64,000 nucleotides of DNA, from the NCBI GenBank assembly GCA_963714275.1, contig CAVQNT010000002.1:288001-352000 (forward strand), in the 5' to 3' direction. The stretch is from Candidatus Bathyarchaeota archaeon. GTDB taxonomy: Archaea > Thermoproteota > Bathyarchaeia > Bathyarchaeales > DTEX01. Below the pieces are notes generated by a model. That model saw nothing but the letters and a program-made list of their open reading frames with translations. It did not search any database and had not been told where the DNA came from. Below are positions 1 to 55,087 of this stretch, one piece after another. Within the stretch, counting starts at the first letter, position 1. Every line of letters begins with the position of its first letter. A program made the translations under genes and the position numbers.

Positions 1-75
1 CGGATGCTTATTTTAATTATATATAATAAAAGCTTATATCAATATTTATCTATATAACTAGAGGGTCGAAATGCA

Positions 76-502: not shown

Positions 503-1045
503 ATGGAAAACATTTATGATGAATATGAAATAGAATGGAAGCTGGCAGGCAATTCGAGAGAAACCCTGAGAAAAGACGTGGTCAACAAATTCTTATCTGA
601 ACCATGTGGGTATTGGAAGAATGGAGAAAAACACGTAACTCGTTTCAAATATTTTGTCGAGAAACTTGAGGATAGTAGAAGAATCTTCTTACTGAGACCA
701 ACATATCTAAACAAAGGCATAGATTTTCAAGTCTGGGTTGAAAGATTCAACGGAATCAAAGACCAGCGACCCAGTCACAAAGACATTTTCAATGACTTGA
801 AATTGAAGAAAAAGGAAAATCCAAAAGACTTCTCCAGACTCATTCAATTGATTGACGAGGTATGGAACTGTAAAGAACCCGATTCCATTTTAGATAAGGA
901 GAACAGATATGCATTCCGTGAGGGATTGCCAACCGAAATGCTCTTGAAAATTCTCAAATGGCTTTTCATAGAACAGGACATCACCTACTGGAACTATGAT
1001 GGCAGAAAAATGCTTAGAATGGCAATAGACAGTGAAACAAAGTAA
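503..1045 (+). CDS. Hypothetical protein, remote paralog of 2369..2905
   Basis: 180-aa ORF; RPSH..DLKLKK and KWLFIEQD motifs; no function recognised. Confidence 0.6.
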   Translation: MENIYDEYEIEWKLAGNSRETLRKDVVNKFLSEPCGYWKNGEKHVTRFKYFVEKLEDSRRIFLLRPTYLNKGIDFQVWVERFNGIKDQRPSHKDIFNDLKLKKKENPKDFSRLIQLIDEVWNCKEPDSILDKENRYAFREGLPTEMLLKILKWLFIEQDITYWNYDGRKMLRMAIDSETK

Positions 1046-1257
1046 CCATGCATCAAATTATTTCGCATCCGAATGCAGTGGAGATATCTCCCGAACACTT
1101 TAAGTTTCTTAGCGCGCGCTTGAGAAATTCATTCTCCATATATACCCTGATCCAAAATGCAAGTCATGAAAAAATGAAAAACATATAGTAAAGATCATTA
1201 AGTCAAACTATGCTAACTGAATAATGAACAACATCTCATTTTAGCGAGTCGGTAAGA

Positions 1258-2157
1258 ATGCTTGAGGAAGAAACTTTAGAGAAGTATCGTCGCGCAGGAA
1301 AGATAGCTGCAAAAGTCAGAGAAGAAATGAAGCGAAAGACCAAGGAAGGGATGCCGTTACTCGAAATCTGCGAAAAAACAGAACGCCTAATTACCAGCAT
1401 GGGTGGCAAGCCAGCGTTTCCTTGCAATGTTTCAGTTAATGAGGTTGCAGCACACTATACGTCTCCTCCCGACGACGCCCAAACGGTCCCAAATGACTCG
1501 TTGGTTAAGATTGATATTGGTGTCCACGTCGATGGCTACGTTGCTGACACCGCAGTTACAATATGTTTCAATCCTGAACTTGAAGGCATGGTTCAAGCCT
1601 CCGAGGCAGCGTTAGAAACAGCCGTCAAAACCGTTCGACCAGGCATACACACGTCTGACTTAGGCTCAGAAATACAGAGAACCATCGAACGCCGAGGGTA
1701 CAAACCTATTTCAAATTTGACTGGTCACCAAGTCGGACGATACATTATTCATACAGGAAAGTCGCTGCCGAATGTTACGCACATTTCCTTTACGAAGATT
1801 AATGCTGGAGATGTCTGCGCCATTGAACCTTTCGTGACTCTTAGGGACGCAGCTGGCAGAGTGGAGGATGGAACGGAAGCCTTCATTTTCAGGTTCGTTA
1901 AGCGGAAGCCAGTTAAAGACCTTGAGGCAGCGCAACTTTTAAAATTTATCGAGGAAGAATACCGAACGTTGCCTTTTGCTGAAAGGTGGCTAGAAAAATA
2001 CTATAAAGGTCACGAGTACAAAGCAGCATTCGCGAAACTGTTGGCTTCTAAGTGCATAATGTCTTACCCAGTTTTCATTGAGGCCAGTCAGAAGCCCGTA
2101 GCCCAATCTGAACACACAGTCTACATTGACAGAAATTCAGCTGTCGTTCTCACATGA
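1258..2157 (+). CDS. map: Methionine aminopeptidase type II
   Basis: AFPCNVSVNEVAAHYT, KIDIGVHVDGYVADTA, NLTGH, AIEPF, AQSEHTV metal-ligand motifs. Confidence 0.97.
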   Translation: MLEEETLEKYRRAGKIAAKVREEMKRKTKEGMPLLEICEKTERLITSMGGKPAFPCNVSVNEVAAHYTSPPDDAQTVPNDSLVKIDIGVHVDGYVADTAVTICFNPELEGMVQASEAALETAVKTVRPGIHTSDLGSEIQRTIERRGYKPISNLTGHQVGRYIIHTGKSLPNVTHISFTKINAGDVCAIEPFVTLRDAAGRVEDGTEAFIFRFVKRKPVKDLEAAQLLKFIEEEYRTLPFAERWLEKYYKGHEYKAAFAKLLASKCIMSYPVFIEASQKPVAQSEHTVYIDRNSAVVLT

Positions 2158-2368
2158 TTATAATTGAACCAACATATGGTTATTTTTTCTCTTCTTCCGT
2201 TTGAAAGATTCAAAAGCCGGAAGCGTTAACTTGAAATTTTTTTTGTGTTAGCACTAGTTAGATAGCCGATCCCTCTAGTTCCATCCAAGATATAACGGAT
2301 GCAATAAAAAACTATGGGATTACTTCGTATTCGGTAGGTTTTTAAGTTTTAAGAGTCTATTTGGTTTT

Positions 2369-2905
2369 ATGCATTTAAAATGCTCTGTTGAAGCTAAAAA
2401 TGGTGAACGAAAGCATTTATTTTCTTTTAAGGAATTTTATCTTAAAAATGGAACGATTATTGGTGTTTTTCAAGGTAGTTATGGGGATAATCCAGAACTT
2501 GATATGATTATAAAATATCAAGAAAAAGGAAAGAGAATTAGAACACCCAAGCACATTCATTGGGCTATTGATTTATTGATTAAGAAAGAACATGAGCCTG
2601 AATTAGTTAAGGATTTTGTCAAGTATTTAATCGAAATGTGGGATAAAATTAAGCCTTTTTTAACAAAGGCAGAACAACAAAACTGCGAATTATATTTCAC
2701 TAATCCTGAAAATCTTAAACCTTTTGAAAAACTTAATGATCATGGAGAATATTCAGTGGAATTTATCGGGCACATTATTGAGTTGATGATGCTTGAAGAA
2801 AAAACAGGCAATCATCAAGCATTTATGTTCAAGGGAGTTTTAGAAGCAATTTACAACGATAAAGAAATCTTCGAAATTGTTTCCAAAGCCAACTTTAGAG
2901 GCTGA
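2369..2905 (+). CDS. Hypothetical protein upstream of the methyltransferase pair
   Basis: 178-aa low-GC ORF; RTPKHIHWAIDLLIKK motif. Confidence 0.6.
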   Translation: MHLKCSVEAKNGERKHLFSFKEFYLKNGTIIGVFQGSYGDNPELDMIIKYQEKGKRIRTPKHIHWAIDLLIKKEHEPELVKDFVKYLIEMWDKIKPFLTKAEQQNCELYFTNPENLKPFEKLNDHGEYSVEFIGHIIELMMLEEKTGNHQAFMFKGVLEAIYNDKEIFEIVSKANFRG

Positions 2906-2980
2906 TTAGAAGATTAATTGAAATTTTAAGCAAGAGCCAGTTATAAAATCCAGAAATAGACTTACAGTCATATTCTCTGT

Positions 2981-3250
2981 CTAGATAGAAGTTAAACTCT
3001 CTATATCTTGTTTCGTAAGAATTTTCCTTTTAATACTTGCTGCTATCAATGAAACAAGTTCTTCTTTGAGCATAATCGGAGCATCTTGTTTGAATTTCCC
3101 ATTTTTCCAGTATGCAATTCTTATGGCTTCAACAGAATTTTTGGTTCCTTTTTCATCTTCTCTTTCATGAAGAATCTTCTGAATTTTATAGGTATATCTC
3201 TTATCTTTTGCCACTATAGAAGCTTCATCTCTAACTATAATTTTTGTCAT
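2981..3250 (-). CDS. Small hypothetical protein
   Basis: 89-aa ORF with purine-rich RBS-like sequence upstream. Confidence 0.5.
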   Translation of the reverse strand: MTKIIVRDEASIVAKDKRYTYKIQKILHEREDEKGTKNSVEAIRIAYWKNGKFKQDAPIMLKEELVSLIAASIKRKILTKQDIESLTSI

Positions 3251-3462
3251 ACAGACCCCTTTTTCTTGATTAATGTTATTAATTATATTGTTAGTACGAT
3301 GAATATTTCTTTATATCTTCCTAATCTGACTTCAGATGCAAGTACTAATTAAATAAAAAGGCTTCGCTGAAAAATTTACACAATCATTAGAATCTAAAAG
3401 CTCAGCTAGGCTTGACCAAATCTCTATAAAGTGCTTATGTGTACAATTCTTAACGAGCAATA

Positions 3463-4326
3463 ATGGAAACATTACTGAATGTCCCCTTGGGCAAGTCGCC
3501 ACGACCATTTGTAAAATGGGCAGGAGGAAAAAGTCAATTACTTGAAAGCCTGAAAAGCCATTTTCCAAAGGACTTTGGGACTTATTATGAACCTTTTCTA
3601 GGAGGCGGTGCTGTCTTTTTCTATCTTGTCGGTAAAAGGCCTCATTTTAATGCTGTTCTGTCGGATGTTAATGCGGAATTAATCACAACTTATCGTGTTA
3701 TAAAAGAGAAAGTTGACAGCCTCATAATGAATCTTGAAGAGCACAGGTTAAATTATAGAATGGAACCAAAGGATTACTTTTATAAAGTTAGAGCTGAAGA
3801 GCCTAAAGATGACGTTGAAAGAGTTGCTAGACTATTATTCTTGAACAGAACATGCTACAATGGTCTGTACAGAGTTAACAGTAAGGGCAAATTCAATGTC
3901 CCTTTTGGTCAATACAAGAATCCAAAAATCGTTGACAAGGAAAACTTGCGAAAAGTAAGCGAAGTCTTACGTGAGTCAAATGCTGAGCTACTTTCAGTTG
4001 ATTATCATGAAGCTACAAAAGATGCAAAAGAAGGCGATTTTATTTATTTTGACCCTCCATATCAGCCCTTGAGCATTACTGCTAGCTTTACAAGCTATAC
4101 TAATTCCGGTTTCTCGATTCAAGACCAAGAACGGTTAGGCAAGTGGTTTCGGGAGTTAGATAAACGAGGATGTCAGATTCTACTTAGCAATTCTGATACT
4201 AAAGAAGTGCGCCGTATCTACGAGGGATATGAAATTCGCCAAGTTCAAGCATTACGCGCTATTAACTGCAAAGGCAACCAGCGTAAGGGTCACACTGAAC
4301 TCATAATAAATAACCTCAAATCGTAA
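3463..4326 (+). CDS. dam: Dam/DpnM-family N6-adenine DNA methyltransferase
   Basis: KWAGGK, EPFLGGGAV (motif I), YNGLYRVN, DPPY (motif IV), LSNS. Confidence 0.93.
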   Translation: METLLNVPLGKSPRPFVKWAGGKSQLLESLKSHFPKDFGTYYEPFLGGGAVFFYLVGKRPHFNAVLSDVNAELITTYRVIKEKVDSLIMNLEEHRLNYRMEPKDYFYKVRAEEPKDDVERVARLLFLNRTCYNGLYRVNSKGKFNVPFGQYKNPKIVDKENLRKVSEVLRESNAELLSVDYHEATKDAKEGDFIYFDPPYQPLSITASFTSYTNSGFSIQDQERLGKWFRELDKRGCQILLSNSDTKEVRRIYEGYEIRQVQALRAINCKGNQRKGHTELIINNLKS

Positions 4327-4393
4327 CAATTCACATAATACACTTTTTAGTAGGAGTAGCTTCAGACTTCGTGAAATAGTGGAAGGGCACAAC

Positions 4394-5431
4394 ATGTCCG
4401 AGAAATATGTTTTCATGAAAGAAATCAAAGAACAAGATCTAAAGAAATTCCTTAAAAGGCATAAATTTGTTAAAATTGGGACTGCTGAAAACAAAATAGG
4501 GCAGCAAAAAATTATTACACAGTATCAACCAGAAGAATTTGAGCTAGAAAGGACCAATGCTTGGTCTTTCCCAAAAAGAGGCAAATGGGCAACACATCAA
4601 GGCAACTTCAGAGGAAACTGGCCCCCTCAAATGGCACGCAACATCATCTTAAGATATTCCAAACCAAACGAAACAGTTTTAGACCAAATGTGCGGTTCAG
4701 GCACAACCCTAATTGAATGCAAACTACTCGGAAGAAACGCCATAGGAGTAGATATTAACCAAAATTGCATCATGCTTACACGAGACAGACTCAACTTCGA
4801 ATATAACCCCCTTGACTCAAACTTTCCCAAAGTTTCAGCAAAAACCTACATCGGAGACGCCAGAAACCTCAACTTAATTAAAGATGAGACAATAGACCTC
4901 ATTGCAACACATCCGCCGTATGCAAACATCATCGCTTATTCAAATAGAAAGAACCAAGTCTCCGGGGACCTTTCGTTTGCTCGTTCACTCGTAGGATATT
5001 TGGATGGAATGCGGGAAATCGCCAAAGAAAGCTATCGGGTTCTTAGACCTGGAAGATACTGCGCAATATTAATTGGCGATACCAGAAAACATAGACACCA
5101 TGTACCGATTGCTTTCAGAGTCCTGCAGGCCTTCTTGGATGCGGGGTTTATCCTAAGAGAAGATGTAATGAAATATCAATGGCGAACCAAATCTACACGG
5201 GAGAAATGGGATGGCTTATCCAAAGTCGCTGAAGAATGCTGGGTAGACATAGACAATGAAGGAAAAAAAGGACGCTACACAGACTTCTTGCTCCTCATTC
5301 ACGAACACCTATTCATATTCAGAAAACCTGAAGAAGGAGAAGACTTGTCAACCCTAAAGAGTAGTATGAAATGGTGGAATGAAAACTCAGAGAATTGTGG
5401 TAAATACTCGATTAAGTTCATGAAAGGTTAA
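4394..5431 (+). CDS. Site-specific amino (N4-C/N6-A) DNA methyltransferase
   Basis: GNWPPQ, DQMCGSGTT (SAM binding), THPPY catalytic motif; start probably the ATG at 4394. Confidence 0.85.
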   Translation: MSEKYVFMKEIKEQDLKKFLKRHKFVKIGTAENKIGQQKIITQYQPEEFELERTNAWSFPKRGKWATHQGNFRGNWPPQMARNIILRYSKPNETVLDQMCGSGTTLIECKLLGRNAIGVDINQNCIMLTRDRLNFEYNPLDSNFPKVSAKTYIGDARNLNLIKDETIDLIATHPPYANIIAYSNRKNQVSGDLSFARSLVGYLDGMREIAKESYRVLRPGRYCAILIGDTRKHRHHVPIAFRVLQAFLDAGFILREDVMKYQWRTKSTREKWDGLSKVAEECWVDIDNEGKKGRYTDFLLLIHEHLFIFRKPEEGEDLSTLKSSMKWWNENSENCGKYSIKFMKG

Positions 5432-5899
5432 CCCTTGGCTTTTTTTGTTCCATTTGGGAAAGTTCATGGCAAAAACCTCGGGAATAACCCGTACCAACCA
5501 TTTGGAATGTTTGCTCTAAGAATAGGGATCGTATTATTTGGTGTCCGGTAATAAAAGACCACAATCGCCAAGGCTCGCGTACGTTGTGAATGTTGAACAT
5601 GGTGAGAATATTTCTAATTTGGTCTGGTTCTTCAATTATGTTTGCAGGAATCTTTTCTAATCCAAAATCTAATGCGCATTGCCATCGGCGTTCTCCATCG
5701 AGAATAACATATTTTCCGTCGCTTTTCCTTTCATAAATTAATAATGGAACAAGAATTCCCACTTTTTTATGGATTCTTTCAGAATTGCCATACTAGATGA
5801 AGGAAAGACTAATTGAGGGTTCTGTGGATTTCTTTCCACTTCCTTTGGGTCAACATAGGCAAGTTTACTTGGTTCAATAAGAGGTTGTTCAATGCCCAA
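5418..5899 (-). pseudogene. ParB/Srx N-terminal domain protein, frameshifted and truncated
   Basis: VERNPQNPQ..SIKK joins GILVPL..ILDGERRW across a frameshift in the T-run near 5762; C-terminus runs into the MTase end. Confidence 0.7.
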
Positions 5900-5989
5900 A
5901 ATAATTCACCTGACTCATTACTAGAATCGTGATGTGGTTTTATAAATATGAGTGATAAGCTGAGTTAGTTTGCTTTCTAAATCTAGCAC

Positions 5990-6589
5990 TTAAATTATCT
6001 GTCTCAGAAACTCAAGGTGAGCGAGTCTATGCTTAACAGTATCAATTGAAGCGCAACTACGAGGAACAGAAATGACATCATATTTTCCATTAAATCCTAC
6101 ATGCTTAGCTATAGAGTAGACATATCTTCGCCAGTATTCCTCATATCCTTCATGCTCCATCACAAGAATGAAGTGAGTTGCATTGAGGTTCATCTGTTTG
6201 TGATAACTCCTTCTATAGGTAGCTCTGTCAGCGCCATAATAAGTTTTAATTTTCACATCTTTCTTTAGAACCCTACCAAATTTCGTTTCATCTTTAATTT
6301 TGTAAAAGGTAGTATACTCAGGTCGCATCATTAATGCTAAGATTGTGTCACCAGTTATCTTTTTTAGGGTAACCCATCCAGATTCTATTTCCCAAACGAA
6401 AACAGACGGTTTAAACCGATTGCCTTCATTATAGAGCCATAAAACATCCGGATGATATTCAAATCTTTTATTTTTAATTTTATAATAGACATTTCCAGTG
6501 CTGGGTTCATATATATTTCTGTTTAATCCTAGTTCTATTATAGCATTCTTAACACGAGGGTGCCAATCCTGATTTCCCTGTTTAGCCAT
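5990..6589 (-). CDS. Putative PD-(D/E)XK-fold nuclease
   Basis: YHPDVLW...VWEIES motif; sits beside methyltransferases. Confidence 0.45.
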   Translation of the reverse strand: MAKQGNQDWHPRVKNAIIELGLNRNIYEPSTGNVYYKIKNKRFEYHPDVLWLYNEGNRFKPSVFVWEIESGWVTLKKITGDTILALMMRPEYTTFYKIKDETKFGRVLKKDVKIKTYYGADRATYRRSYHKQMNLNATHFILVMEHEGYEEYWRRYVYSIAKHVGFNGKYDVISVPRSCASIDTVKHRLAHLEFLRQII

Positions 6590-6893
6590 AAGAAACCCAA
6601 TATTCTGTATTCTTTGAATGCTATCTAAAGCTAGCTCACTCTAATACATAAAAGACAATGTGCGTCTCTCACTCCAACAGCCAAGACAGTGGTCTTGAAC
6701 ATCCCAGACATATATTATAGAGACCAACTTGGGCTGAGGATAAACCTAAAATAAAAATTGAACCCCTACTTAAAACAACTATCTAGCTCACTAAGTTTGA
6801 ACTAAACAAAAATGGTTGATTCGACTCTTAATAAATGGATTATCATATATAGAATGATGGTGCCAGGAAAGAGTTTTGTCGAGGTGATGTGGC

Positions 6894-7172
6894 GTGATTG
6901 TTTATCTTCGAAAAGCAAGAGATGCTTCTTCCACTAAATTATTTGAGTGGCGAAGCGAAGGTTCTGAAACTTGGAATCGCATTTCCTCTGAAGACATACA
7001 TATGGGTACACATGGTGACTTATTCGAGACGGCACTCTTTTGCCGTATTGAGGGGCGAGAAGAAACTGTTTTACTTGAGGCCTTCCTCACCATAGGAAGA
7101 GTAATAGCGCAGAAAAGACCCAAAAAAGCACACAGTCGTAAAACTAGGCTGGGAAAACCTAACGACGACTAG
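6894..7172 (+). CDS. Hypothetical protein
   Basis: 92-aa ORF preceded by GAGGTG RBS. Confidence 0.4.
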   Translation: MIVYLRKARDASSTKLFEWRSEGSETWNRISSEDIHMGTHGDLFETALFCRIEGREETVLLEAFLTIGRVIAQKRPKKAHSRKTRLGKPNDD

Positions 7173-7339
7173 CTGAGCTTCTGGTATGCGAGAACCTATT
7201 TGTCTTTAGTCTCTTTTGTTTTTAACACATCGATTTAGCATGCGCGCGCTAAAACCGCGTATGATGATTGCATAAAAACAGCAAACAGAAGTATCGTTGG
7301 GAATTTATAAACTAGTCTAGTAATTTGTAGATAAGCTAA

Positions 7340-7609
7340 CTATTCATAGATAATATCCACCAATTTTTCAAAAGTTTTTAGTTTTTTTAACCTTAACTTT
7401 TTAGTTTTAACTATAAGATGAAATTCACCTCTTTTGCAGTATATATGCCAAAGTGTACATCCTTCCATCCACATGTGCATACGCTTTTTACAGAAGGGGC
7501 AATAAACAGCTTTTCCATCAATTTTAGCAAGCTTATCCATCAGTATAGTTTCTTGATTTGAATCTTCTTCTCCATGAGTCCATATCCCAAATGCCCTCGG
7601 AATTCTCAT
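7340..7609 (-). CDS. Small Zn-finger-like protein
   Basis: CPFC...HIYC; GGTGAG RBS upstream. Confidence 0.5.
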   Translation of the reverse strand: MRIPRAFGIWTHGEEDSNQETILMDKLAKIDGKAVYCPFCKKRMHMWMEGCTLWHIYCKRGEFHLIVKTKKLRLKKLKTFEKLVDIIYE

Positions 7610-7826
7610 TATCTCACCATTTCCATTAGAAGAAACTATAATGATAAGTATCTAAAAATAGCTAGCTAGCTGCCAATAATAATCGACCAAGGGTTTTTTG
7701 GGATGATTTTGAGGTTGGGTTGGGATGTGGAGCCCAGTTCAAAGACCCTAGTAAGCATGAAAATACAGAAAATAACACTAATAAAGAGGAAAGAAGATTA
7801 AACTAATAGCATTAGTTGGGATATAT

Positions 7827-10153
7827 TTGAGTTCTTTCAAGGACCAATTGAGTGAACGTCTCTCGAATCTTGAAGATCTCTTGACAAGAAATAAATGGGA
7901 AGAATCTGTAGAGAGTTGTATCAAATTAATTGACATTGCGTTAACGGAAAAGTATAAATTGCTTTTTCATTCGTTAACCCCATCTGCGCAAAAGCAGATT
8001 CTTGAAGAACTTGAAAAACTGAATAAGCGATTTGATGAACTCCAATTCGGTGACAAGTCTACGCATTTTTAAGGAACATAAAATCTTGTCTTTCAACAAA
8101 ACATTTACTCTAAGTCGCATCACAGACCTTGATAACATCTTCATCATTAATGATCTGAGAGTCGAGTCTACTCATCCAACTAAGGTGGATAAGAAGTTTA
8201 AGGAAATCACAAAAGGTCTTTCCTATTTTAGTTACGCTGTAACTCTTGAATTTCTATCTGCATTGAATATGTTACCAATTGATTATGGGAAGGAACGTGC
8301 CCAAATATTCAACAATCTCCCGCCTTCCGACTGCATTGAATTCATTGGAAGAGAGCACCAAGTTCAGGAAGTTGTAGATGCCTTAATGAATGAGAGGTTC
8401 CCAATCGTTTCAATTGATGGCATCGGAGGAGTTGGTAAATCCACATTAGCAATAGAATGTGCAAGTAAACTTGCTGAGAAGAGCATCTTTGACGCCATCA
8501 TTTGGTTAGGAGCAAAAAAGCAAAAACTAACAAGTGAAGGAATCAAAGATATCGAAAACAGTTTTGAAAATCTCGAAGATCTCTTCACAGTCGTTTTGAA
8601 GGCTTTTGGTGCTTCCGATTTCCTTGAATACAACTTTGAAACTAAAAAAGCAAAAGTCTTAGAAATTCTCCAGAACAACGCTTGTCTAATGGTAATTGAC
8701 AATCTAGAAACAATAGAAGACCAGAACCTAAAGCGGTTTCTAATCGACGACCTTCCGCCCTTGCCAAAAACCCTGATCACAAGTAGAGAAAGATTAGGAG
8801 AACTCGAAAAAGTAGTGTGGCTTAAGGAGTTTTCATTAGATGAAACTGGAAAATACATACACTCACAATTGAAACACCGAGGATACACTGAACCTATCAC
8901 GGATATATTGATCAAAAGATTGCACGCAGCAAGTGGAGGTATACCTCTAGCCCTTAGAATATCAATTCCTTGGATAATAGAAGGTAAATTAGGACCTGGA
9001 ACCAGTGAAGATAAAGTTTTTGAGAAATCAGAAGTCCTAAAATTTTGTTTTGAAAAAGTATTTAACGATTTTCTTGATGAAGATACTAAAAATCTCTTCT
9101 TAATGATGTCTGTATCCCCAAGCGATATCAGTGAATCAGCGTTGAAGTTTATTTCTGGACTGAGCGAAGAAAAGTTTACTACAAATGTAAATAGTCTCAT
9201 AAAGTATTCGCTTATTTCAAAGATCCAATCAATAGAAACTGCTGAAACCTTGTTTTCAATGCTTCCTCTCACTCAACTGTTTGGCAGAAAACTTGTTGAA
9301 GAAAAACACAAGGAGATTCGAACAAGAGTGAGTCGCGAATATCTCAAATACTTCCAGATTACAAGCGATGAAAAAGTTTCAGCTAAAAGAGCGATGTCAC
9401 TTAACAAAGCAGAAGAAGCTATGAGGCTATCACGTGCAGGTAATGATTCAGAGGCCGAGTCTCTGTTTCGTGAAGCACTAAATTATGATAAAGACGATGA
9501 TTACGCTCTTTATTTGTATGCCATATTTTCCAAGGAAAGGCAAAATTATGGACAAGCGATGGAACTCATACAACGTGCAATAAATCTGCAAAAAGAGAAT
9601 CCCGTATACTGGATAGAATTTTCAAACATCCTAGAATTATGGGGGGACTTTAGGAAGGCTGAAAGGATCTTGGAAGAAGCCCTGAGGCGCTGTAGTCATG
9701 ACATGCGGATAACACAGAAACTGGTTGTGATAAAAGAGAGGTTGAACAAAATTGAGGAAGCAATGGCTCTTGCCGAGAAACATATCAACATGAACCCTGT
9801 AGACACAAAACAAACATTTCTGAACACGTTATTTGTAGTGGCTATCCTAGAAGGAAACTGGAGACTTGGCTGCCGCTATCGACAAACAAATCCTGACGCC
9901 AGTTTGGCATACTTCCTTGACAGCATGAAGAGCATGGAAAAATACAGAAGTGTCATACAACCAAACAATGCGAAATTGCAATTTCATGAAAAGAAAATCC
10001 TCAAAGCAATAGTGACTCTATCAACAAAAAGGCGATATTACGAATGCACGCCAATACTACGAGCGAAGTCTGTATTCCGTTGCATTTTTCGAGGATAGAC
10101 AGAAGCACAATGAAATAATCAACAAAAGAATAGCAGAACTCGGGAACTCGTAA
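7827..10153 (+). CDS. STAND (NB-ARC) NTPase with N-terminal HEPN-like domain and C-terminal TPRs; frameshifts near 8060 and 10030
   Basis: FIGRE, Walker A GIGGVGKS, Walker B VIDNLE, ITSR, GIPLAL; TPR-like helices; LRVESTH (Rx4H) near N-terminus. Confidence 0.85.
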
Positions 10154-10495
10154 GATATTCTTTCGTAAGAAGTGTCCAAAATTCTTGACTAGAGTTTTTG
10201 TCATTAGAAACTAGTCAGTGGTTATAATAGTGATTTCGAAGTAGACTTTCATGTCCTGAGTCAGCTAGCAAGGATTCATGATAGTTTTGAAGCCCAAGAA
10301 GAGTTCTAAACCCCCGTAAAAACGTTTCTATATATAGAAAAATGCCCTTCTAAGTTAGCTAGCTAGTACACAGTCCCATTAAATCCTTAATTAATGTTCA
10401 GCAGTTCTCCTTGGTAAAACCATGTAAAGAGTTTTTATACGTTCATTTTATGGCACTTCGTTAATAAAGTCTTTTGCGGGACTACCTACTAGCTA

Positions 10496-10560
10496 GGACA
10501 TGACAGGAAATGGGAAACCACGACTTTCGATCTTTAAGGGTATAAAAGCAAGACTGAACA
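10496..10560 (+). repeat. Decayed copy of 14089-14153 (5' end of the wHTH gene)
   Basis: GGACATGACAGGAAATGGGAAACCA.GACTTTCG.TCTTTAAGGGTA..AGCAAGACTGAACA occurs at both places. Confidence 0.85.
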
Positions 10561-10640
10561 AAATATATGGCTGAAAAAAATACTTTGCTAGCTAGTTAAA
10601 TTAATGGAGATAAATTAATAATTAATTGCAAGCCAAAAAA

Positions 10641-10781
10641 CTAAGCAACACACTTTTTCTTTTTTCTAATTTCTTTGATTTCTTCTGTCTTCGCCCAGTT
10701 AAGCACCGCAATTTCAAACTTTGCATCCAATATTTCTGAGTCATAATCACGTTTCTTTTCTTTTTTAACCGTCATCATCAT
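10641..10781 (-). CDS. 46-aa charged peptide coupled to the peptidase gene
   Basis: ATGA overlap with the 10778 stop; MMMTVKKEKKRDYDSEILDAKFEIAVLNWAKTEEIKEIRKKKKCVA. Confidence 0.45.
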   Translation of the reverse strand: MMMTVKKEKKRDYDSEILDAKFEIAVLNWAKTEEIKEIRKKKKCVA

Positions 10782-11584
10782 TTTTTCTCATCCTCTAAGC
10801 CTAAGTTGTTTATCATTTCCTCAACTTCTTTAGGCTTCTCAAATTTTATTTTTGTATCATGTATTTCTTTCAGTTTATCCAATTCCGATTGATTAAGATA
10901 ACGAATTTCTTGATTTATTATTGCTAGGTCAGTATAATCTCTGCCTACTCCTGGTGCTGCTTCAGCTCTACGTTTTGCTTCATATACTAAGAAAACTGCT
11001 TTATTTAGATTCAAGCTTGTATTATAATTGTTAAATATAAAGGCAGACATGGCATGAGGGTAGCCTGAGCCAAAACCACAAAAACCCAGAGGATTAAAAC
11101 ACTGACTTACACCAGGGTCAACAAGACAATATAGATGGGCTCCAATTTGGTCAACACCTACAATAATCATCTGCAAGTTTATTTCAGCTTCGCTCAAGGC
11201 TTTATCAAGCCTCATAGATATATTTGGGTCCATTGCTCTTTGTGCACCACTATAAAAATCCACTAATGTAAGTCCTCTCGGTTTAAGTTCAGCTTCTTCA
11301 AATCTTTTCTTTCTTTCATTTACAAAGGCTTTTTTTATTTCTTCAACTAATTGTGGGATTTGAGATATTGCAGATGAACCAATGCTAGCTTTTGCTGACT
11401 GCAAGATTTCGTGTTTTATTAAAGCGTCTCCAGCAGTCATAACAACACATGATTTTGTTATTTCTTCTATTTTGGGTTCCAATGTTTCAAATTCAACTGA
11501 AAGCCCCTCTTGTGTTAACATTCTATCGGCTGCAACTATAGCACTTTTCCCTCCACTGCAAATTGCACCAACGATAATTGTCAA
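10778..11584 (-). CDS. Proteasome-beta-like Ntn hydrolase
   Basis: TTG start at 11584 gives M-TIIVG..AIVAADR..K..GSG, placing Thr at position 1 after Met removal. Confidence 0.75.
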   Translation of the reverse strand: MTIIVGAICSGGKSAIVAADRMLTQEGLSVEFETLEPKIEEITKSCVVMTAGDALIKHEILQSAKASIGSSAISQIPQLVEEIKKAFVNERKKRFEEAELKPRGLTLVDFYSGAQRAMDPNISMRLDKALSEAEINLQMIIVGVDQIGAHLYCLVDPGVSQCFNPLGFCGFGSGYPHAMSAFIFNNYNTSLNLNKAVFLVYEAKRRAEAAPGVGRDYTDLAIINQEIRYLNQSELDKLKEIHDTKIKFEKPKEVEEMINNLGLEDEKK

Positions 11585-49500: not shown

Positions 49501-49957
49501 TTAGCTTATGAGTTTCTTTGCCGCGATCTTAACGTCTTTTCTTTCGACTGTTTTTCCCGCAATTGGAATTTTCACTTTCTTGGTATTCTGCAAGAACTTC
49601 TCGGTTACAAAGAATACTTGCTCCTCGGTTCTTCCCCTTACTTCTCCTTCCATGAAATCAAGTGAGATTTTGGCACCAACACTTCAACAGTTTGATGCAT
49701 CTCAAAAAGCCGTAGCTGTCCCTTTTCTCAAAAGCCTCAGTGCTCAGATCCTTAGGCAACAACTTTTGTATTTTGTCCAGATTCCAGCCGTCTGATTTCT
49801 TCAGGACAAAATCGCAATCCCTTGTGTATCGTGAGAGTGACGTAAAAGCTCTAAGAGCATATCCACCAATCAAAACAATCTTGGGATTTTCAAATCCGTT
49901 AGTCTGCTTAGACAATTGCTCGATTATTCTTCCAATCTCTTCCTCTCTCAAGTTCAT
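49501..49957 (-). pseudogene. AbiEii-like nucleotidyltransferase toxin, frameshifted and shortened
   Basis: VLIGGYAL...RYTRDCDF. Confidence 0.65.
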
Positions 49958-49970
49958 GATTTCGGAATGC

Positions 49971-50682
49971 TTAACCAAGCTCAACAACCTTCTCGACTGC
50001 TTCATCAATTTCTCTTTTCACAAAGTCATCTTCCAATTTTGTCTCTCTATGCGGAAATTCAACCCCGCCTAACTCGCCTAACTGATGAAAGCCATACTCT
50101 AAAGCCTGTCTTAGCTCTAACGTTTGTCTTGGAAATTCTTTTCCAGTAAGACTCTTTGTACAATCTGTCCAAATTGATTTTATCCCGGTTCTCGTACAAA
50201 GTAGCGAATGCATCGGCAAAAGCCCATTTCTGCAAACACTCGATTACATTTTCTTCGATATCCTCAACAAGCAAGTTTCCAACTTTCCGATACTTGATTT
50301 TGGATGCGTCTTTCGAGTATTCGACTTCAACATTCCAACCTTTCTTCTTGGCAAATTCTTTCAATGCTTTTCCATAGGACTTGTCTTTGACTTTCAAGAC
50401 ATAAACGTCCCTGTGAATGAAATCATTGTTCCAGAAAGACGCGGCGGTTTGAGCAGAGACCACTTTGAAGTTCTTGTCTTTTTCCAAGAAGTCCCAGATG
50501 CCTTTGACTTCTGTAGGAACCCAATACCATCCCCACTTGACCCTTTCTATTGATCCTTCTTTGGCTAATTTGTTCAAGTATTCCTTGGCGTTTGGCTCAA
50601 TGTTTTTTATGGAGTTAACTTTAATCAAACTTCCTTTGAAGGGCCTCAATTTCTCGTTAAATTTTGTCAAGTATTTAGGCAT
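49971..50682 (-). CDS. AbiEi-like antitoxin; frameshift near 50115
   Basis: YLNKLAKEGSIERVKWGWY wHTH; directly upstream of the NTase. Confidence 0.65.
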
Positions 50683-50873: not shown

Positions 50874-51197
50874 TTAGATGGTCCAGTAAGAATGAAGCTT
50901 CAAGTCTTTATTGTTCACTTCGGCTCTCACAAATTCCACGATGTCTTCGTCCCTTATGTAAAGGTTTCCTGACTTGTCAGTGTGCAACGGTATGCCTGTC
51001 TTTCTAAGGCAATTCCCAACTGCGTTATCAATAAAAACATATTGTTTTTCGACAGCTGGCAAGATAAGCCTGAGACCTGTAAGGTGTCTAGCTGATACTC
51101 CCCGTTCAATATTGTAAGCAATGCTTTTAGGAGCATGCTCTATAATTAGTCTCTTAAACTCATCCCACGACTTCACTCTAATAATTTTGCCACTCAA
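50874..51197 (-). CDS. Hypothetical protein, last gene of the DGC/GcvH operon
   Basis: 107-aa ORF with GGGAG RBS. Confidence 0.6.
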   Translation of the reverse strand: MSGKIIRVKSWDEFKRLIIEHAPKSIAYNIERGVSARHLTGLRLILPAVEKQYVFIDNAVGNCLRKTGIPLHTDKSGNLYIRDEDIVEFVRAEVNNKDLKLHSYWTI

Positions 51198-51219
51198 GTT
51201 AATGCTCCCGTTTCATAAT

Positions 51220-51687
51220 TCATTTTTTCAGTCTTGAGCGTTCGTTTTCGATTTTTCGTCTCATTACGTTAAAATAAGATTCAGGGTCGAGAAGGTTTTC
51301 TTTGTCCCTTTCGAAGTCTTTGGTCTCAATCCTCACGAACCATCCCTTGCCATATGGATCTTGGTTTACGAGTTCCGGTTTCTGCTGAAGTTCCTCGTTT
51401 GTTTCTTTCACTACGCCTGATACTGGTGATATCAGGTCAAGCATGGTCTTAATTGCCTCGAACGAGCCGGCTTCGTCAAACTGTTCGACCACGGTGCCGG
51501 ACTCTGGTAACTCAACGAATATGATGTCTCCAGCCATGTTTTGTAAGAAGTCAGTTATGCCTACAGTCGCAAATTTCCCCTCCGGTCTCGCCCAACAGTC
51601 ATTCTCATTATAAAAACGGTCTAGAGGAACACGAAAAGTCCACTTGTCAACTCTTAATTCCAGATGGGTCTCACCCATTTCATTCAC
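51220..51687 (-). CDS. gcvH: Glycine cleavage H-like lipoyl-carrier protein
   Basis: VGITDF.Q..GDI.FVELP, EAIK (lipoyl Lys), SPVSG, NQDPYGKGW. Confidence 0.9.
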   Translation of the reverse strand: MNEMGETHLELRVDKWTFRVPLDRFYNENDCWARPEGKFATVGITDFLQNMAGDIIFVELPESGTVVEQFDEAGSFEAIKTMLDLISPVSGVVKETNEELQQKPELVNQDPYGKGWFVRIETKDFERDKENLLDPESYFNVMRRKIENERSRLKK

Positions 51688-52091
51688 CTATTTTCTGCAA
51701 GCAGTTTATCGATTGTTTCTGCAACTTCTTGCGCAATTATTTCAGCGAGTTTCTCTCCATTCGACCCTATGTTAGATGCGGAGTCAGGCGTTAGATTGTG
51801 CTTCTTGGCGCTGTCTGGGACGAAAGCTCTTCCTCTAATTTTTCCGCCGTTCTTAATCACCAATTTGGTTGCGCAACGTTCAGCGCAACCGTCTACAGTT
51901 ATGACTGGAAGACTCTTGATTAATTCAGAATAATGGCTGACACCAGCCAACAAGGGGGTAAGACAGATCATTTTGGCATTGTTTGGCCTAAGATTTTCCG
52001 TAACCTTGAAAACGCTTGCGCGAGCCACTGAGCCTAGGGCTTTGTCCATGCCCGCGCATGCCACCACAGCTACTTTCACACCTTCCATCAT
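51684..52091 (-). CDS. DGC-domain putative Zn-binding protein (third copy)
   Basis: ACAG, CL, VDGCAERCA. Confidence 0.85.
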   Translation of the reverse strand: MMEGVKVAVVACAGMDKALGSVARASVFKVTENLRPNNAKMICLTPLLAGVSHYSELIKSLPVITVDGCAERCATKLVIKNGGKIRGRAFVPDSAKKHNLTPDSASNIGSNGEKLAEIIAQEVAETIDKLLAENR

Positions 52092-52103
52092 GACTCCCTT
52101 CTC

Positions 52104-52523
52104 TTAGCGCTCCTTTTTCTGACCTAAGGCTTCGTCCACCTTCTTCGCTATCTCTTCAGCCACTTTCTCGGCTAACTCCATGTCCTCAGCGCTCAATTCG
52201 TCTCTTGACTTCAGATTGAGCTGAGGATACTTCTTCAGAATATCAGTGACTACGACAGTTGCGGTGGGCTTACCGCTATACTTCTTCGTCCCGATTTCAG
52301 CGCATCTCTTCTCGCAGCCATCCACCGTTATTGTGGGAAAAACGCGGGCAAAGGCCCTCTCGTCCTCGCTTCCAGCCAAGAAGAGGGGAAGACAGATCGT
52401 AACCGTCTCCCCAGGTCTCAGCTTCTCCAAAACGAGTCGTGTGGCAATTCTGGAGATTGTTCCCTCTGGAATCTCCTCGCCGCTACAGGAGATTATGCCA
52501 ACCTTGTTCATTGCCATACCCAT
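52104..52523 (-). CDS. DGC-domain protein (second copy)
   Basis: SCSG, CL, VDGCEKRCA. Confidence 0.85.
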   Translation of the reverse strand: MGMAMNKVGIISCSGEEIPEGTISRIATRLVLEKLRPGETVTICLPLFLAGSEDERAFARVFPTITVDGCEKRCAEIGTKKYSGKPTATVVVTDILKKYPQLNLKSRDELSAEDMELAEKVAEEIAKKVDEALGQKKER

Positions 52524-52942
52524 TATTCATCTTCTCCCTCTATTTTGTCGATCTCCTTTGCCACTTCGTCGGCTAGGAGGCTTGCCAGATTCTCTCCTTC
52601 AGCGTTTAACTTGATAACCCCCTCAGGTTTCAATCCCCTATGATTCCGTAGAACATCTGTGACCATTATGCTCCTTACCAGCCTGCCCTTTGAGGCTTCA
52701 ATATTCTTTTTCGAGCACTGGGCTGGGCAACCGTCTATCGAAATGCAAGGGTTCTCGCGGATCATCTTCAACGTCTCCTCATCACCTATTGTGAGCAGGG
52801 CCAGACATGTAGTCCTAGCCTGGTCTGGTCTGAGTTCCTCAATGACCTTGTATGCTGCTTTTCTGCCTACAGTCCCGAGGGACTTACCTATTCCGCTGCA
52901 AGGGATGACGAAGACATTATGTTTAGACACTTTTCTCTCCAC
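52523..52942 (-). CDS. DGC-domain protein (first copy)
   Basis: PCSG, CL, IDGCPAQCS. Confidence 0.85.
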   Translation of the reverse strand: MERKVSKHNVFVIPCSGIGKSLGTVGRKAAYKVIEELRPDQARTTCLALLTIGDEETLKMIRENPCISIDGCPAQCSKKNIEASKGRLVRSIMVTDVLRNHRGLKPEGVIKLNAEGENLASLLADEVAKEIDKIEGEDE

Positions 52943-52944
52943 CT

Positions 52945-53229
52945 TTAGTAGCCTCTCTTATCTTTGATTATCTTAAGAACATCTGGTTTGCTTGGAAAGT
53001 TCAGCGCGTCTGCAGCGCAAACTTTTCGGCAACTCCTGCAGAATACGACGCAATTGTCTGGGTTCTTTATTATGAGTTTGGGCGGGTTACCTTCAACACC
53101 GTAAACGTTGTGAGGACAGAATTTGAGGCATTGGGGTTCCCCATCGCACAGATTACACTTCTCATAGTCTATGATTGGTGACCATGGAATCTCCTTGCGT
53201 GGCACGCCCATATAGGCTTCCTCAGACAT
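52945..53229 (-). CDS. 2x[4Fe-4S] ferredoxin
   Basis: CNLC....CLKFCP and CVVFCRSCRKVC. Confidence 0.9.
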   Translation of the reverse strand: MSEEAYMGVPRKEIPWSPIIDYEKCNLCDGEPQCLKFCPHNVYGVEGNPPKLIIKNPDNCVVFCRSCRKVCAADALNFPSKPDVLKIIKDKRGY

Positions 53230-53593
53230 TTTTCCCCGTCTCCTTCAAAGCGTTCTTCACGACGTTCAAAGCTTCCTCCAATTTCATGTTTCTCACATCA
53301 AGCGGGATTAGATCCTTGTTGATGTCTAGGCCCGCTTTCGAGAAGGCGTCTCTGAAGAGCTTCCTCTGCATCACTGGCGCACAACCGGCTACAATGTATC
53401 TGCTTCCTTTCTTGAGGAACTCATCGAGGAAGCGTTCACCGTCCTCGTCGCAGAGCATGGGGTGGATGAAGGCGTACTCCACAGGATACTCGGTTCTTAT
53501 GATGTTGATGAAGTCCCAGATATCCAGCTGAGCAAAGCCTGGACATTTGCCTGTACAGACGCAGAATATGAAACCTATTTTACTATTTTCCAT
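53222..53593 (-). CDS. Stand-alone HdrA N-terminal-like Fe-S domain protein
   Basis: KIGFIFCVC, HPMLC, IVAGCAP...LFR...DVR. Confidence 0.75.
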   Translation of the reverse strand: MENSKIGFIFCVCTGKCPGFAQLDIWDFINIIRTEYPVEYAFIHPMLCDEDGERFLDEFLKKGSRYIVAGCAPVMQRKLFRDAFSKAGLDINKDLIPLDVRNMKLEEALNVVKNALKETGKNV

Positions 53594-53673
53594 AAATTTT
53601 CCCTTACTTTTTTAGGTTTGTTATTTTCGCCCTTTTTCGGTTCAATATTATTTGATGATGGGATATTCATAGC

Positions 53674-53687
53674 AATATTTAAATATT
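53674..53687. promoter_or_regulatory. Palindrome in the divergent promoter (bidirectional TATA box or operator)
   Basis: AATATTTAAATATT perfect palindrome between the two operons. Confidence 0.45.
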
Positions 53688-53709
53688 CTTATTAACTCAC
53701 TCATTAGAC

Positions 53710-54033
53710 ATGTATCCTAAGAAAAGTGGTTCAAACAGGTTTAAGGCGAGAATTTTTAACGCTCTTTCGGATGCGGTTAGACTTGACATAATCGAGTTTT
53801 TGCGTGAAGGAGAAAAATGCGTATGTGAGATAGTTCCGCACATTGGATTGATTCAGCCTGTGATTTCACGGCATTTAAAAATCCTAAAGGAATGTGGCAT
53901 TGTAAGAGACAGGAAAGCAGGGAATAGGCGACTTTATTCAATAACAGATCCTAGAGTACTTAAGATTGTGGACTCGGTGACTCCAGAATTTACTGAATCC
54001 ATTTCAAGATATTTGATTGAATTAATAGCTTAA
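53710..54033 (+). CDS. arsR: ArsR/SmtB repressor
   Basis: FNALSD..RL, EKCVCEI metalloid site, SRHLKIL. Confidence 0.9.
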   Translation: MYPKKSGSNRFKARIFNALSDAVRLDIIEFLREGEKCVCEIVPHIGLIQPVISRHLKILKECGIVRDRKAGNRRLYSITDPRVLKIVDSVTPEFTESISRYLIELIA

Positions 54034-54048
54034 ACGGGAGAAGGAACT

Positions 54049-55087
54049 TTGGAAAGCAAAGAAGAACATATGGAAAAAGAATCATCCCTTGGGCTCTTTG
54101 AGAAATACTTGACTGTTTGGATAGCGCTGTGCATAGTCGCAGGATTGCTTGTCGGAAGATTTCTGCCAGAATTTGGACAATTTATGGACTCTCTAAAATT
54201 TAGACAACTTTCAATTCCAATAGGCATTCTCCTATTCTTCATGATGTACCCCACGGTCGTGGGAATCCGGTTCAGCGACATAAAAAAAAGCAGCAAACAA
54301 TCCTAAACCCTTACTTGTCACTATCATTGCTAATTGGGTTATTGCTCCACCTCTGATGACGCTTTATGCAAACACTGTCTTAGCCGGCAATCCTCAGTAC
54401 ATCGCAGGGTGCATACTTCTCGGGCTATCTCCTTGCACAGCCATGGTTATGTGGTGGATGTTTCTTGCAAAAGGCGACATGGCACAGGGACTCATCAACA
54501 CAGCAGTCAACGCTTTGTTAATGCTCTTTCTGTATGCTCCACTTGCAGCCTTTTACTTGGGCGTAAGTAGTATACCTGTACCTTTGGACTTGATTGCTAT
54601 CAGTGTTTTGGTTTTCATAGCATTACCTGTAGCATCAGGCGCTATTTCAAGAAAGATAATATTAGAAAGAAAAGGAGAAGAATGGTTCAGCAGCACATAT
54701 CAACCAATTGTCGCAAAAATATCTATCATCGCCTTATTGACTACTTTAATAGTGCTTTTTTCCTTTGAAGGAGAAATAATAATTAATAATCCTCTCTTGG
54801 TCGCCTACCTTGCAGCACCAAATCTTATGCATTACGCCACCATGATCACGTGGACTTATCTTCTCGGATACTTTGCAGGCTGGAAATATGAGACAGCCAT
54901 AGATACCACGCTTATCGGGTCAAGCAGCCACTTCGAAGTCGCCATAGCCGTAGCCACAACACTTTACGGCATCGGATCAGGAGCAGCCTTAGCAACAGTC
55001 ATAGGACCATTAATGGAAGTACCCTTAATGCTTTCACTCGTAAAACTTGGCCTTCGCACCAGAAAATACTTTCCAAGAAAGAAATAG
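54049..55087 (+). CDS. acr3: Acr3 arsenite efflux permease; frameshift in A-run near 54285
   Basis: FEKYLTVW, MMYP, SPCTAMV, HFEVAIAVA, GPLMEVPLML. Confidence 0.92.

Follow-up and report, generated by a model that had tools for sequence, protein, structure and literature searches.

The metallochaperone ArsD hands arsenic to the pump ArsA and needs no lipoyl or iron-sulphur (Fe-S) partners to do so, and ferredoxin:thioredoxin reductase holds a [4Fe-4S] cluster with an adjacent redox-active cysteine. Mycobacterium tuberculosis reportedly runs a peroxidase relay from dihydrolipoyl dehydrogenase (Lpd) through a lipoyl protein and AhpD to AhpC, and Ohr/OsmC is likewise said to be lipoyl-dependent. 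In sHdr-LbpA sulfur oxidation, as described in the available part of its source, a heterodisulfide reductase (Hdr)-like complex is accompanied by proteins that bind lipoate and by dedicated lipoate ligases (PMC6067878). The accessible part of a preprint on Pseudodesulfovibrio mercurii ND132 reports that, in RNA-seq, both As(III) and As(V) raise the expression of an ArsR5-ArsP-ArsE-DGC operon, the DGC protein of which it lists as of unknown function (bioRxiv 10.1101/2022.10.17.512643). Here we describe a seven-gene operon encoding a GcvH-type lipoyl carrier, three DGC proteins, a ferredoxin and an HdrA-like Fe-S protein (hdrAN), which stands divergent from the arsenic resistance genes arsR and acr3 in a 64,000-nucleotide stretch of DNA (C2:288001-352000, hereafter the window) of a Bathyarchaeota genome of 2.64 Mb in 10 contigs, 91% complete. 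Many anaerobes among the archaea and bacteria have the same module beside ars genes, and this suggests that arsenic is handled in a way not yet recognised; a functional tie of this lipoyl/DGC/Fe-S operon to arsenic resistance is strongly supported by the comparison of gene neighbourhoods.

The module and its linkage to ars genes

All seven genes, confirmed by the list of open reading frames (ORFs) and by profile scans, lie co-directionally on the minus strand at 50874-53593, each where an earlier note on this DNA had placed it, with gaps of -8, 2, -1, 12, -4 and 22 nucleotides in the order hdrAN, ferredoxin, DGC1, DGC2, DGC3, gcvH and hyp107. The first encodes a stand-alone homologue of the HdrA N-terminal domain (53222..53593, 123 amino acids, assigned from PDB-sequence and NCBIfam HdrA2 matches), and the second a ferredoxin of 94 amino acids with eight cysteines, probably holding two [4Fe-4S] clusters (52945..53229, Fer4-family matches). 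DGC1 (52523..52942) and DGC2 (52104..52523), both with a Cys4 site, and DGC3 (51684..52091) match PF08859 with 63.4, 60.2 and 52.7 bits, respectively, against a cut-off of 27. They are followed by the gene for the GcvH-type lipoyl carrier protein (51220..51687, 155 amino acids, PF01597 and TIGR00527) and by hyp107 (50874..51197), which encodes a conserved protein of 107 amino acids without a Pfam or NCBIfam match and is a likely, though not certain, member of the operon. On the other side of a divergent promoter region of 116 bp (53594..53709, read from the sequence) stand, on the plus strand, arsR (53710..54033) and acr3 (54049..55087), encoding an ArsR-family repressor and an arsenite efflux permease; the width of this gap and the CVC site of ArsR, here within EKCVCEI, are as the earlier note had described them.

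Scanning of GTDB species genomes with an hdrAN alignment gave 381 relatives, the best 80 of which were kept and, together with the window, make up 81 loci, 34 of them archaeal (the window counted) and 47 bacterial. The 33 archaeal relatives come from Bathyarchaeia, with one Nezhaarchaeota, three Thorarchaeota and one Promethearchaeota, and the bacterial ones mostly from Clostridia, with some Bacteroidota, Planctomycetaceae and Caldisericia; those closest to the window's hdrAN are from Bathyarchaeia (84-88% identity). The ORFs of all loci were clustered and the cluster representatives annotated, the ORF caller having at times put conserved antisense ORFs in place of real genes. DGC and GcvH are each found in 67 of the 81 loci, ArsR in 66, ferredoxin in 49, Acr3 in 37, Lpd in 32, ArsP and ArsC-like LMWPc in 21 each, Thioredoxin_3 (the ArsE family) in 19, the lipoate ligase LplA in 17, cysteine desulfurase and a PF04060 Fe-S protein in 14 each, ArsA in 10, ArsM in eight and ArsD in six. 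At least one of Acr3, ArsC, ArsA, ArsD, ArsM and ArsP is present in 60/81 loci, and any of them or ArsR in 74/81. The rough expectation for a random stretch of about 16 kb of the window's own genome, resting on 13 HTH_5 genes and three acr3 loci in 2.64 Mb, is about 8% for HTH_5 and about 2% for acr3. The surveys show the ars-linked arrangement to be far beyond chance. In addition, the link spans the 34 archaeal and 47 bacterial loci with differing gene orders, and is repeated at a second locus of the same genome. The earlier note had tied the operon functionally to arsR and acr3, had proposed a neighbourhood survey and had conceded that an operon usually found without ars genes would speak against the tie; the linkage seen across two domains supports it, and in the close family the operon usually does have an ars gene nearby.

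A further tie comes from gene fusions. GcvH is fused behind a DGC domain in 45/45 bacterial loci with GcvH and in four Asgard loci, that is, in 49 (e.g., L118:8649-9506, where DGC spans residues 6-92 and GCV_H residues 159-277), and the fused DGC domain is most similar to the window's DGC3 in 44/49, the very protein whose gene overlaps gcvH by 4 nucleotides in the archaeal operon. The DGC1 and DGC2 paralogue types are also kept in the bacterial clusters, where the usual order is Lpd, hdrAN, ferredoxin, DGC3-GcvH, DGC1-type, DGC2-type and LplA; the order fused-3, 1, 2 is found in 21/47 bacterial loci, and in three more with one extra DGC upstream. By the Rosetta-stone argument, these fusions count in favour of the operon's functional tie to arsR and acr3. 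Lpd is present in 32/47 bacterial loci (its representative passes TIGR01350 with 510.7 bits against 408.8), whilst LplA is present in 15/47 bacterial and 2/34 archaeal loci (TIGR00545, 412.9 against 280 bits for the representative).

The proteins themselves are well conserved in their presumed working parts. In three PDB sequence groups (7bkb with E 5e-4, 9sfi and 5odc; E 5e-4 to 8e-3) the match of hdrAN is to residues 1-90 of HdrA; it also matches positions 1-86 of NCBIfam HdrA2 (E 0.004), and it has no Pfam match. With 123 amino acids and matches limited to those residues it is not a full HdrA: the FAD (flavin adenine dinucleotide)-binding thioredoxin-reductase-like domain, the inserted ferredoxin and the MvhD-like C-terminal domain are all absent. 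Five cysteines (C11, C13, C17, C48 and C71) are invariant in 53/53 archaeal and bacterial relatives, and identity across both domains reaches 95% or more at about 45 of the 123 positions. C11, C13, C48 and C71 align with cysteines of the 7bkb and 9sfi HdrA, the four N-terminal ones that we take to ligate a [4Fe-4S] cluster there, and C17, four residues after the second predicted ligand, has no cysteine counterpart in the HdrA alignment. The family is compact: a search of 1.84 billion representatives gave 156 clusters at 50% identity with E <= 1e-3, and at least 1245 proteins matched in a larger collection; the search for longer, fused forms gave only two proteins, and a plasmid collection had no match. 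The eight cysteines of the ferredoxin are invariant in 50/50 relatives, its top NCBIfam matches being HgcB-like ferredoxins below cut-off.

The window's DGC proteins belong to PF08859 and carry four cysteines, C15, C46, C72 and C76, which are invariant in five paralogues and are kept in 114, 108, 114 and 114 of 114 relatives, the D-G-C motif included. The AlphaFold2 (AF2) model of DGC1, with a predicted local distance difference test (pLDDT) score of 93.6, has a flavodoxin-like alpha/beta/alpha sandwich fold without a specific solved relative: Foldseek gave no match at E <= 0.001, and a wide structure search gave generic flavodoxin-like/HybD-like folds, the best being 3pu6 (Z 8.7, rmsd 2.7, 107 residues aligned), with neither HdrA nor MvhD among the matches listed. 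GcvH is a member of its family by both profiles (PF01597 with E 3.6e-35 and 121 bits against 22.2; TIGR00527 with 120.5 bits against 115.85). Its predicted lipoylation site is K80 in FEAIK, an E-x-x-K hairpin, and this lysine is kept in 67/68 GcvHs of the module. Its N-terminal extension carries a motif, FRVP...YNENDCW, which is common to the linker of the bacterial fusions.

The second locus, on contig C6 (L006, G000:C6:326000-340000, 4927-11485), consists of GcvH, DGC, DGC, an OsmC-like fragment, a split CcdA/DsbD, a small thioredoxin-like protein and hyp107, and its GcvH-DGC-DGC genes are divergent from arsR, a split acr3 and arsM; hdrAN and ferredoxin are absent from it. One of its DGCs is 62% identical to DGC2, and its hyp107 is 91% identical to that of the window. 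hyp107 is present in 10/34 archaeal loci (the window counted), often adjoining acr3; its AF2 model (pLDDT 86.8) has a weak eL38-like fold match (best E 2.9e-3), and a search of the Atlas gave no usable match. A set of genes similar to that of the C6 locus follows GcvH in many of the archaeal versions (Bathyarchaeia, L080-L094), namely DUF169, a 76-amino-acid ORF, a weakly ResA-like protein of 234 amino acids, a membrane protein of the DsbD/CcdA kind and a small thioredoxin-like protein. The DsbD/CcdA set, a possible route of reducing equivalents across the membrane, is not in the window operon and is present at the C6 locus.

Elsewhere the genome encodes two LplA-type ligases, two arsM-like genes, an Lpd homologue (C2:199873-201266, outside the window and itself split) and, in all, four GcvH-like genes. 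On another contig (L078, G000:C8:1-7594, 75-6887) an HdrA-like (FlpD + Fer4), an HdrC-like and an HdrB-like (CCG) gene form a cluster followed by a 195-amino-acid GcvH-like protein without the lipoyl lysine (IETWMF) and by a TauE exporter; a lysine-less GcvH-like gene of similar kind is found in another genome (L008:2574-2942). At L077 (G000:C2:876000-886000, 4119-5890) a canonical-looking GcvH (VESVK) adjoins a pyridine nucleotide-disulfide oxidoreductase nearest to CoA-disulfide reductase, with a score below cut-off. Downstream of the window operon, at 49658-50682, are two minus-strand genes (207 and 116 amino acids) without a Pfam match. The G+C content at 52-54 kb of the window is 0.465, and that of the flanks lower, at about 0.40-0.41.

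The shared promoter region, arsR and acr3

ArsR of the window has the ArsR/SmtB winged-helix domain (HTH_5 E 3.5e-17; NF033788 with 90.9 bits against 55), and its CVC motif stands just before the DNA-recognition helix, at what we take to be the As(III) site of type-1 ArsR (cf. Cys32 and Cys34 of R773 ArsR). A CxC motif, mostly C[VA]C, is present in 82/89 ArsR ORFs of the related loci, i.e., in 62/66 loci.

The acr3 neighbour named by the earlier note is indeed there; what the note overlooked is that it is read in two frames. The two ORFs (54049-54306 and 54356-55087) cover TIGR00832 positions 1-70 with 76.4 bits and 90-326 with 224 bits, the cut-off for a single protein being 282.8, and the break falls at a run of eight A (54283-54290). 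The frame shift was demonstrated against an 89%-identical orthologue, and the run is one A shorter, with the frame open, in two public metagenome contigs, of which the first (223 nucleotides) has 1 other difference and the second (1134 nucleotides) has 38 differences. Further genes of the assembly are split by single frame shifts, namely the other two acr3 copies and genes for an ABC ATPase, a CcdA-like protein, MoeA and the Lpd homologue (L006 2712-3736, 5587-6362 and 9645-10680; L077 6076-7033; G000:C2:199873-201266), which suggests homopolymer indel errors in the assembly. Since these other genes are split likewise, the break in acr3 is probably an assembly error.

Within the 116-bp region a perfect palindrome, AATATTTAAATATT (53674..53687), TATA-box-like and centred about 29 nucleotides upstream of the arsR ATG, is a candidate ArsR operator. 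It is conserved in the gap between arsR and hdrAN of the archaeal loci, the rest of the region not being conserved among orthologous loci. Its 12-mer core is found near 21/34 archaeal ArsR genes vs 0/55 bacterial ones, and occurs just 26 times across 382.5 kb of archaeal loci. In the window's own genome the 14-mer occurs twice and the 12-mer five times. Two of the 12-mer sites are in the two gaps between GcvH/DGC and arsR, whilst the other three precede unrelated genes, so that specificity of the palindrome for ArsR had to be rejected for this genome. It may thus be a symmetric TATA-like box, possibly doubling as ArsR operator.

Four Acetobacterium loci (L143, L144, L152 and L155) have another palindrome, TTATAAGCAATTGCTTATAA, in the gap between arsR and hdrAN, about 100-140 nucleotides upstream of hdrAN; it stands upstream of TTGACA/TATAAT-like hexamers and is a candidate bacterial ArsR operator. 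Several Bathyarchaeia have a small Cys-rich ORF of about 62 amino acids (CxC...CxxC...CxxC) between arsR and hdrAN (L083:7773-7997 and L094:7802-7985; cluster 'c31' in L080, L082, L090, L091 and L093), for which there is no room in the window.

A possible thiol relay and its alternatives

Our preferred reading, offered with more doubt than conviction, is that ars operons of anaerobes have a conserved accessory module, of which this cluster is the unfused archaeal form, and that the module is built around a dedicated lipoyl carrier and works as an ArsR-controlled, electron-fed thiol relay with reductive output. ArsR would sit on the palindrome overlapping the TATA-like box, and the binding of As(III) would release it, switching on acr3 and the module. 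Ferredoxin would then feed electrons into hdrAN, a [4Fe-4S] protein of the HdrA-N type whose fifth invariant cysteine stands beside the predicted cluster ligands, and reducing equivalents would pass to and fro between the swinging dihydrolipoyl arm of GcvH on the one side and hdrAN and the three distinct Cys4 DGC proteins on the other; in Bacteria, the module's own Lpd could be the entry point of NADH, and a lipoate ligase of its own would come with it. The relay would supply dithiol reducing power to pentavalent arsenic species, or to the thiol proteins that reduce them (ArsC, ArsE-type thioredoxins), and the trivalent product would leave via Acr3 or ArsP. Reductive output is favoured because three electron-handling proteins are conserved together with the lipoyl carrier, and because arsC is absent within about 8 kb in most loci (60/81), which leaves room for a reductase role. 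By analogy, the arsenic induction of the DGC operon of ND132, as given in the accessible part of the preprint, may be counted in favour of this relay. A bolder form of it, a so far unknown enzyme system for arsenic that gives lipoate a non-metabolic role, and in which hdrAN would be the catalytic subunit and, with ferredoxin, the dihydrolipoyl arm and the three Cys4 DGC subunits, would transform arsenicals beyond the reach of ArsC (e.g., by the long-sought reduction of pentavalent methyl- or thio-arsenicals to an exportable trivalent form in anoxic habitats), seems unlikely.

The same gene counts could be read in another way. Efflux genes are commoner than arsC in the 81 loci (Acr3 in 37 and ArsP in 21, vs ArsC in 21), and this would suit a system that binds arsenic without reducing it: the reduced lipoyl arm and the Cys4 sites of the DGCs would bind As(III) and methylated MAs(III), either passing the trivalent arsenic on to Acr3/ArsP or keeping it from other targets as a sacrificial sink, whilst ferredoxin/hdrAN or Lpd would merely keep the thiols reduced. 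The vicinal dithiols of dihydrolipoamide do bind As(III) tightly, and each of the three DGC paralogues has four conserved cysteines. DGC is also found with ArsR, ArsP and Trx3 (Thioredoxin_3) where there is no redox partner, ArsP and Trx3 each being near DGC in 7/59 loci of the survey described below, and the ND132 operon is alike in this, as far as the accessible text describes it. Such capture and hand-off is rather doubtful all the same, since mere binding would not call for a ferredoxin of its own together with Lpd and a highly conserved Fe-S protein that has an extra cysteine, As(III) binding leaves the dithiol unoxidised, and stoichiometric sequestration is costly. We know of no precedent for a lipoyl metallochaperone, and the genes of the known arsenic chaperone-pump pair are seldom nearby, with ArsD in only 6/81 and ArsA in only 10/81 loci.

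Loci in which the module's genes occur without ars genes bear on a third explanation. PF08859 was found in 58/401 sampled genomes of the phylum, that of the window counted, and 67 loci were taken from the other 57; tblastn finds hdrAN in 20/67, and GcvH in just two same-order genomes (L008 and L009), both with the complete operon of hdrAN, ferredoxin, three DGCs and GcvH and with arsR and acr3 near. A DGC ORF was called in 59 loci, a count that takes in the window and the C6 locus, and the recurrent neighbours within 3 kb of it are hdrAN (16), ArsR (12), ferredoxin (12), an SBF/Acr3-like transporter (11), Mrp/NUBPL (11), ArsP_1 (7) and Thioredoxin_3 (7). One lineage of about 12 loci, its hdrAN at 47-50% identity, has Mrp/NUBPL, DGC, hdrAN and ferredoxin without ArsR or GcvH. 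This distant lineage, together with the four full-length loci without ars genes in the hdrAN survey, is what would be expected if the module served the general repair of thiols, Fe-S clusters or redox damage and were merely co-regulated with ars genes, not acting on arsenic at all. It could do so, after stress from arsenic or from another source, by restoring damaged Fe-S clusters or oxidised thiols, or by a lipoyl-dependent, peroxidase-type relay like that of Lpd, lipoyl and AhpD/OsmC. AhpD and Ohr/OsmC are lipoyl-dependent systems, and the neighbours of the module include cysteine desulfurase and the PF04060 Fe-S protein (14 loci each), SufBD, CMD/AhpD-like proteins, OsmC, DsbD/CcdA with thioredoxin-like proteins, and Usp. 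Against this, a CxC of the As(III) type is found in the ArsRs of 62/66 loci, 49/81 loci have specific arsenic genes (Acr3, ArsA, ArsD or ArsM), there is no peroxiredoxin among the recurrent clusters annotated, and the carriers are strict anaerobes. The window has no Lpd, AhpD or peroxiredoxin and hence lacks the gene set of an Lpd-lipoyl-AhpD/AhpC-type relay. We consider repair without action on arsenic improbable.

The loci with Mrp/NUBPL, an Fe-S carrier ATPase, belong to one genus, with an AsnC-type regulator near and no ars genes; the arrangement with DGC, hdrAN and ferredoxin is found at L019, L023, L027, L036, L040, L045, L050, L051, L054 and L056. A trio of DUF169, DGC and SBF/Acr3-like transporter, without hdrAN, recurs in other lineages of the phylum (L021, L033, L039, L053, L061, L067 and L069), the transporter being 25-31% identical to the window's Acr3.

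The derivation of hdrAN from HdrA and its pairing with a lipoyl carrier, much as in sHdr-LbpA according to the available part of PMC6067878, could also suggest arsenic-sulfur chemistry, in which sulfane sulfur would travel on the lipoyl arm, as has been proposed for LbpA, and the Fe-S proteins would form or cleave As-S bonds, e.g., those of thioarsenates in sulfidic sediments. The cysteine desulfurase of 14 loci would fit, and so would the habitats, for of the four public DNA runs examined that have related sequence two carry the label wetland, one freshwater sediment and one peat. However, the annotated clusters showed no HdrB/HdrC (CCG) subunit, rhodanese, TusA or DsrE, the genome's own HdrA/C/B-like cluster is elsewhere, with a lysine-less GcvH-like protein, and the idea is purely inferential; we judge it very unlikely.

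Last, the lipoyl carrier could belong to glycine cleavage, as a substitute GcvH, induced by arsenic and supplied with Lpd and LplA, that stands in for a poisoned system. The window's GcvH passes the TIGR00527 cut-off, the bacterial loci add Lpd and LplA, and many of the bacterial carriers are, we assume, acetogens or clostridia using glycine pathways. The earlier note had seen no arsC, gcvP, gcvT or lipoamide dehydrogenase in the window, and this is borne out: tblastn finds no arsC, Lpd, LplA, arsM, arsA, arsD or arsP there, and neither gcvP nor gcvT was found in the whole 91%-complete genome (PF02347 and PF01571, 0 matches; as controls, the profiles match in 10 and 11 of 14 genomes). Lacking the P- and T-proteins as working partners, the window's GcvH does not serve glycine cleavage, and neither a DGC fusion nor hdrAN/ferredoxin has a role in that pathway. 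Given the missing partners, a spare part for glycine cleavage is disfavoured and its probability next to negligible. The same absence tells on part of what the earlier note had proposed. Its core, that the operon belongs with arsR and acr3, stands on the neighbourhoods, the fusions, the paralogous C6 locus and the conserved promoter palindrome, whilst its suggestion of a lipoyl decoy that shields other lipoyl enzymes is a poor fit to this genome, since neither gcvP nor gcvT was found in it, 2-oxoacid dehydrogenase genes not having been searched for.

Several considerations weigh against the electron-fed relay that we prefer. No RNA run is listed among the public runs with related sequence. The dithiol cofactor being a classic target of As(III), a catalytic lipoyl relay amid arsenite is paradoxical; capture of As(III) may account for the parts perhaps equally well. 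The genome already has an arsC, of the low-molecular-weight protein tyrosine phosphatase (LMW-PTPase) type, elsewhere, beside its third arsR-acr3. The metal of the DGCs could be Zn, Fe-S or none, and homology of hdrAN and DGC is not supported, a profile-profile comparison giving a probability of 0.8% and an E of 0.07, which is not significant. The palindrome may be just a strong symmetric TATA box, since its core also precedes unrelated genes of the genome. In addition, the 80 loci, as the closest of 381 relatives, are no random sample and include many kin. Seven of the 81 have no ars gene near, four of them full-length (L121, L130, L138 and L139) and the other three on contigs under 5 kb, and the ars-free lineage of about 12 loci implies that the core trio is not intrinsically arsenic-specific.

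Meaning and comparison with known systems

The ars operons are among the best-studied resistance systems, yet this module of six to eight genes is absent from the arsenic literature searched, although it adjoins the ars genes of Bathyarchaeia, Asgard archaea, acetogens, clostridia and other anaerobes. Open-access papers and bioRxiv gave no description of a GcvH/Lpd/LplA/DGC/HdrA-N module within ars operons. The main text of the paper on Fusibacter sp. 3D3, itself a carrier, mentions neither lipoyl, lipoate, lipoamide, glycine cleavage, gcvH nor DGC (PMC9751042), and the available portions of two further papers hold nothing on ArsE/ArsF that bears on DGC (PMC9144182, PMC9623898). If the module does act on arsenic, this would be a new role of the lipoate cofactor, the second outside the classical lipoyl enzymes after sulfur oxidation, it would give a function to two orphan families (DGC/PF08859 and the stand-alone HdrA-N proteins), and it could explain how strict anaerobes of wetland, peat and sediment cope with arsenic species. 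A role in arsenic handling is directly testable, because several carriers are in culture, among them Acetobacterium, Clostridium ragsdalei, Terrisporobacter, Caloramator and Fusibacter sp. 3D3.

Of the known systems, ArsD/ArsA resembles the module in having, within ars operons and beside an efflux system, genes for small cytosolic proteins rich in cysteine. There is no relation in sequence or fold, however, the DGC proteins being flavodoxin-like, and few of the module's loci have ArsD. The likeness to the M. tuberculosis relay lies in the use of NADH, Lpd and a lipoyl protein for detoxification, as the Lpd of most bacterial loci and the CMD/AhpD-like and OsmC-like proteins of some would suggest; unlike that relay, the window has a ferredoxin, hdrAN and DGCs, and its regulator and neighbours are arsenic genes. 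The likeness to ferredoxin:thioredoxin reductase is one of analogy: hdrAN has four predicted ligand cysteines in common with HdrA-N and a fifth invariant one, and its gene adjoins that of a ferredoxin.

Compared with sHdr-LbpA, as far as its source was available, the module likewise has a GcvH-like lipoyl carrier outside glycine cleavage, an Hdr-derived Fe-S protein and, often, its own lipoate-protein ligase. It differs in having only the N-terminal domain of HdrA, three DGC proteins and an arsR/acr3 context, and the window operon encodes no CCG (HdrB/HdrC) or FAD-domain protein, so that its GcvH, unlike LbpA, is not encoded with sHdr genes. The ND132 operon, in which ArsE is thioredoxin-like (PF13192) according to the accessible part of the preprint, is the nearest match in the literature searched: in both, DGC is encoded in an operon under presumed control of ArsR, and the association of ArsP, Trx3 and DGC is also met in the DGC survey. 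Unlike the operon of the window, that of ND132, on the same partial text, has a single DGC and no GcvH, hdrAN or ferredoxin.

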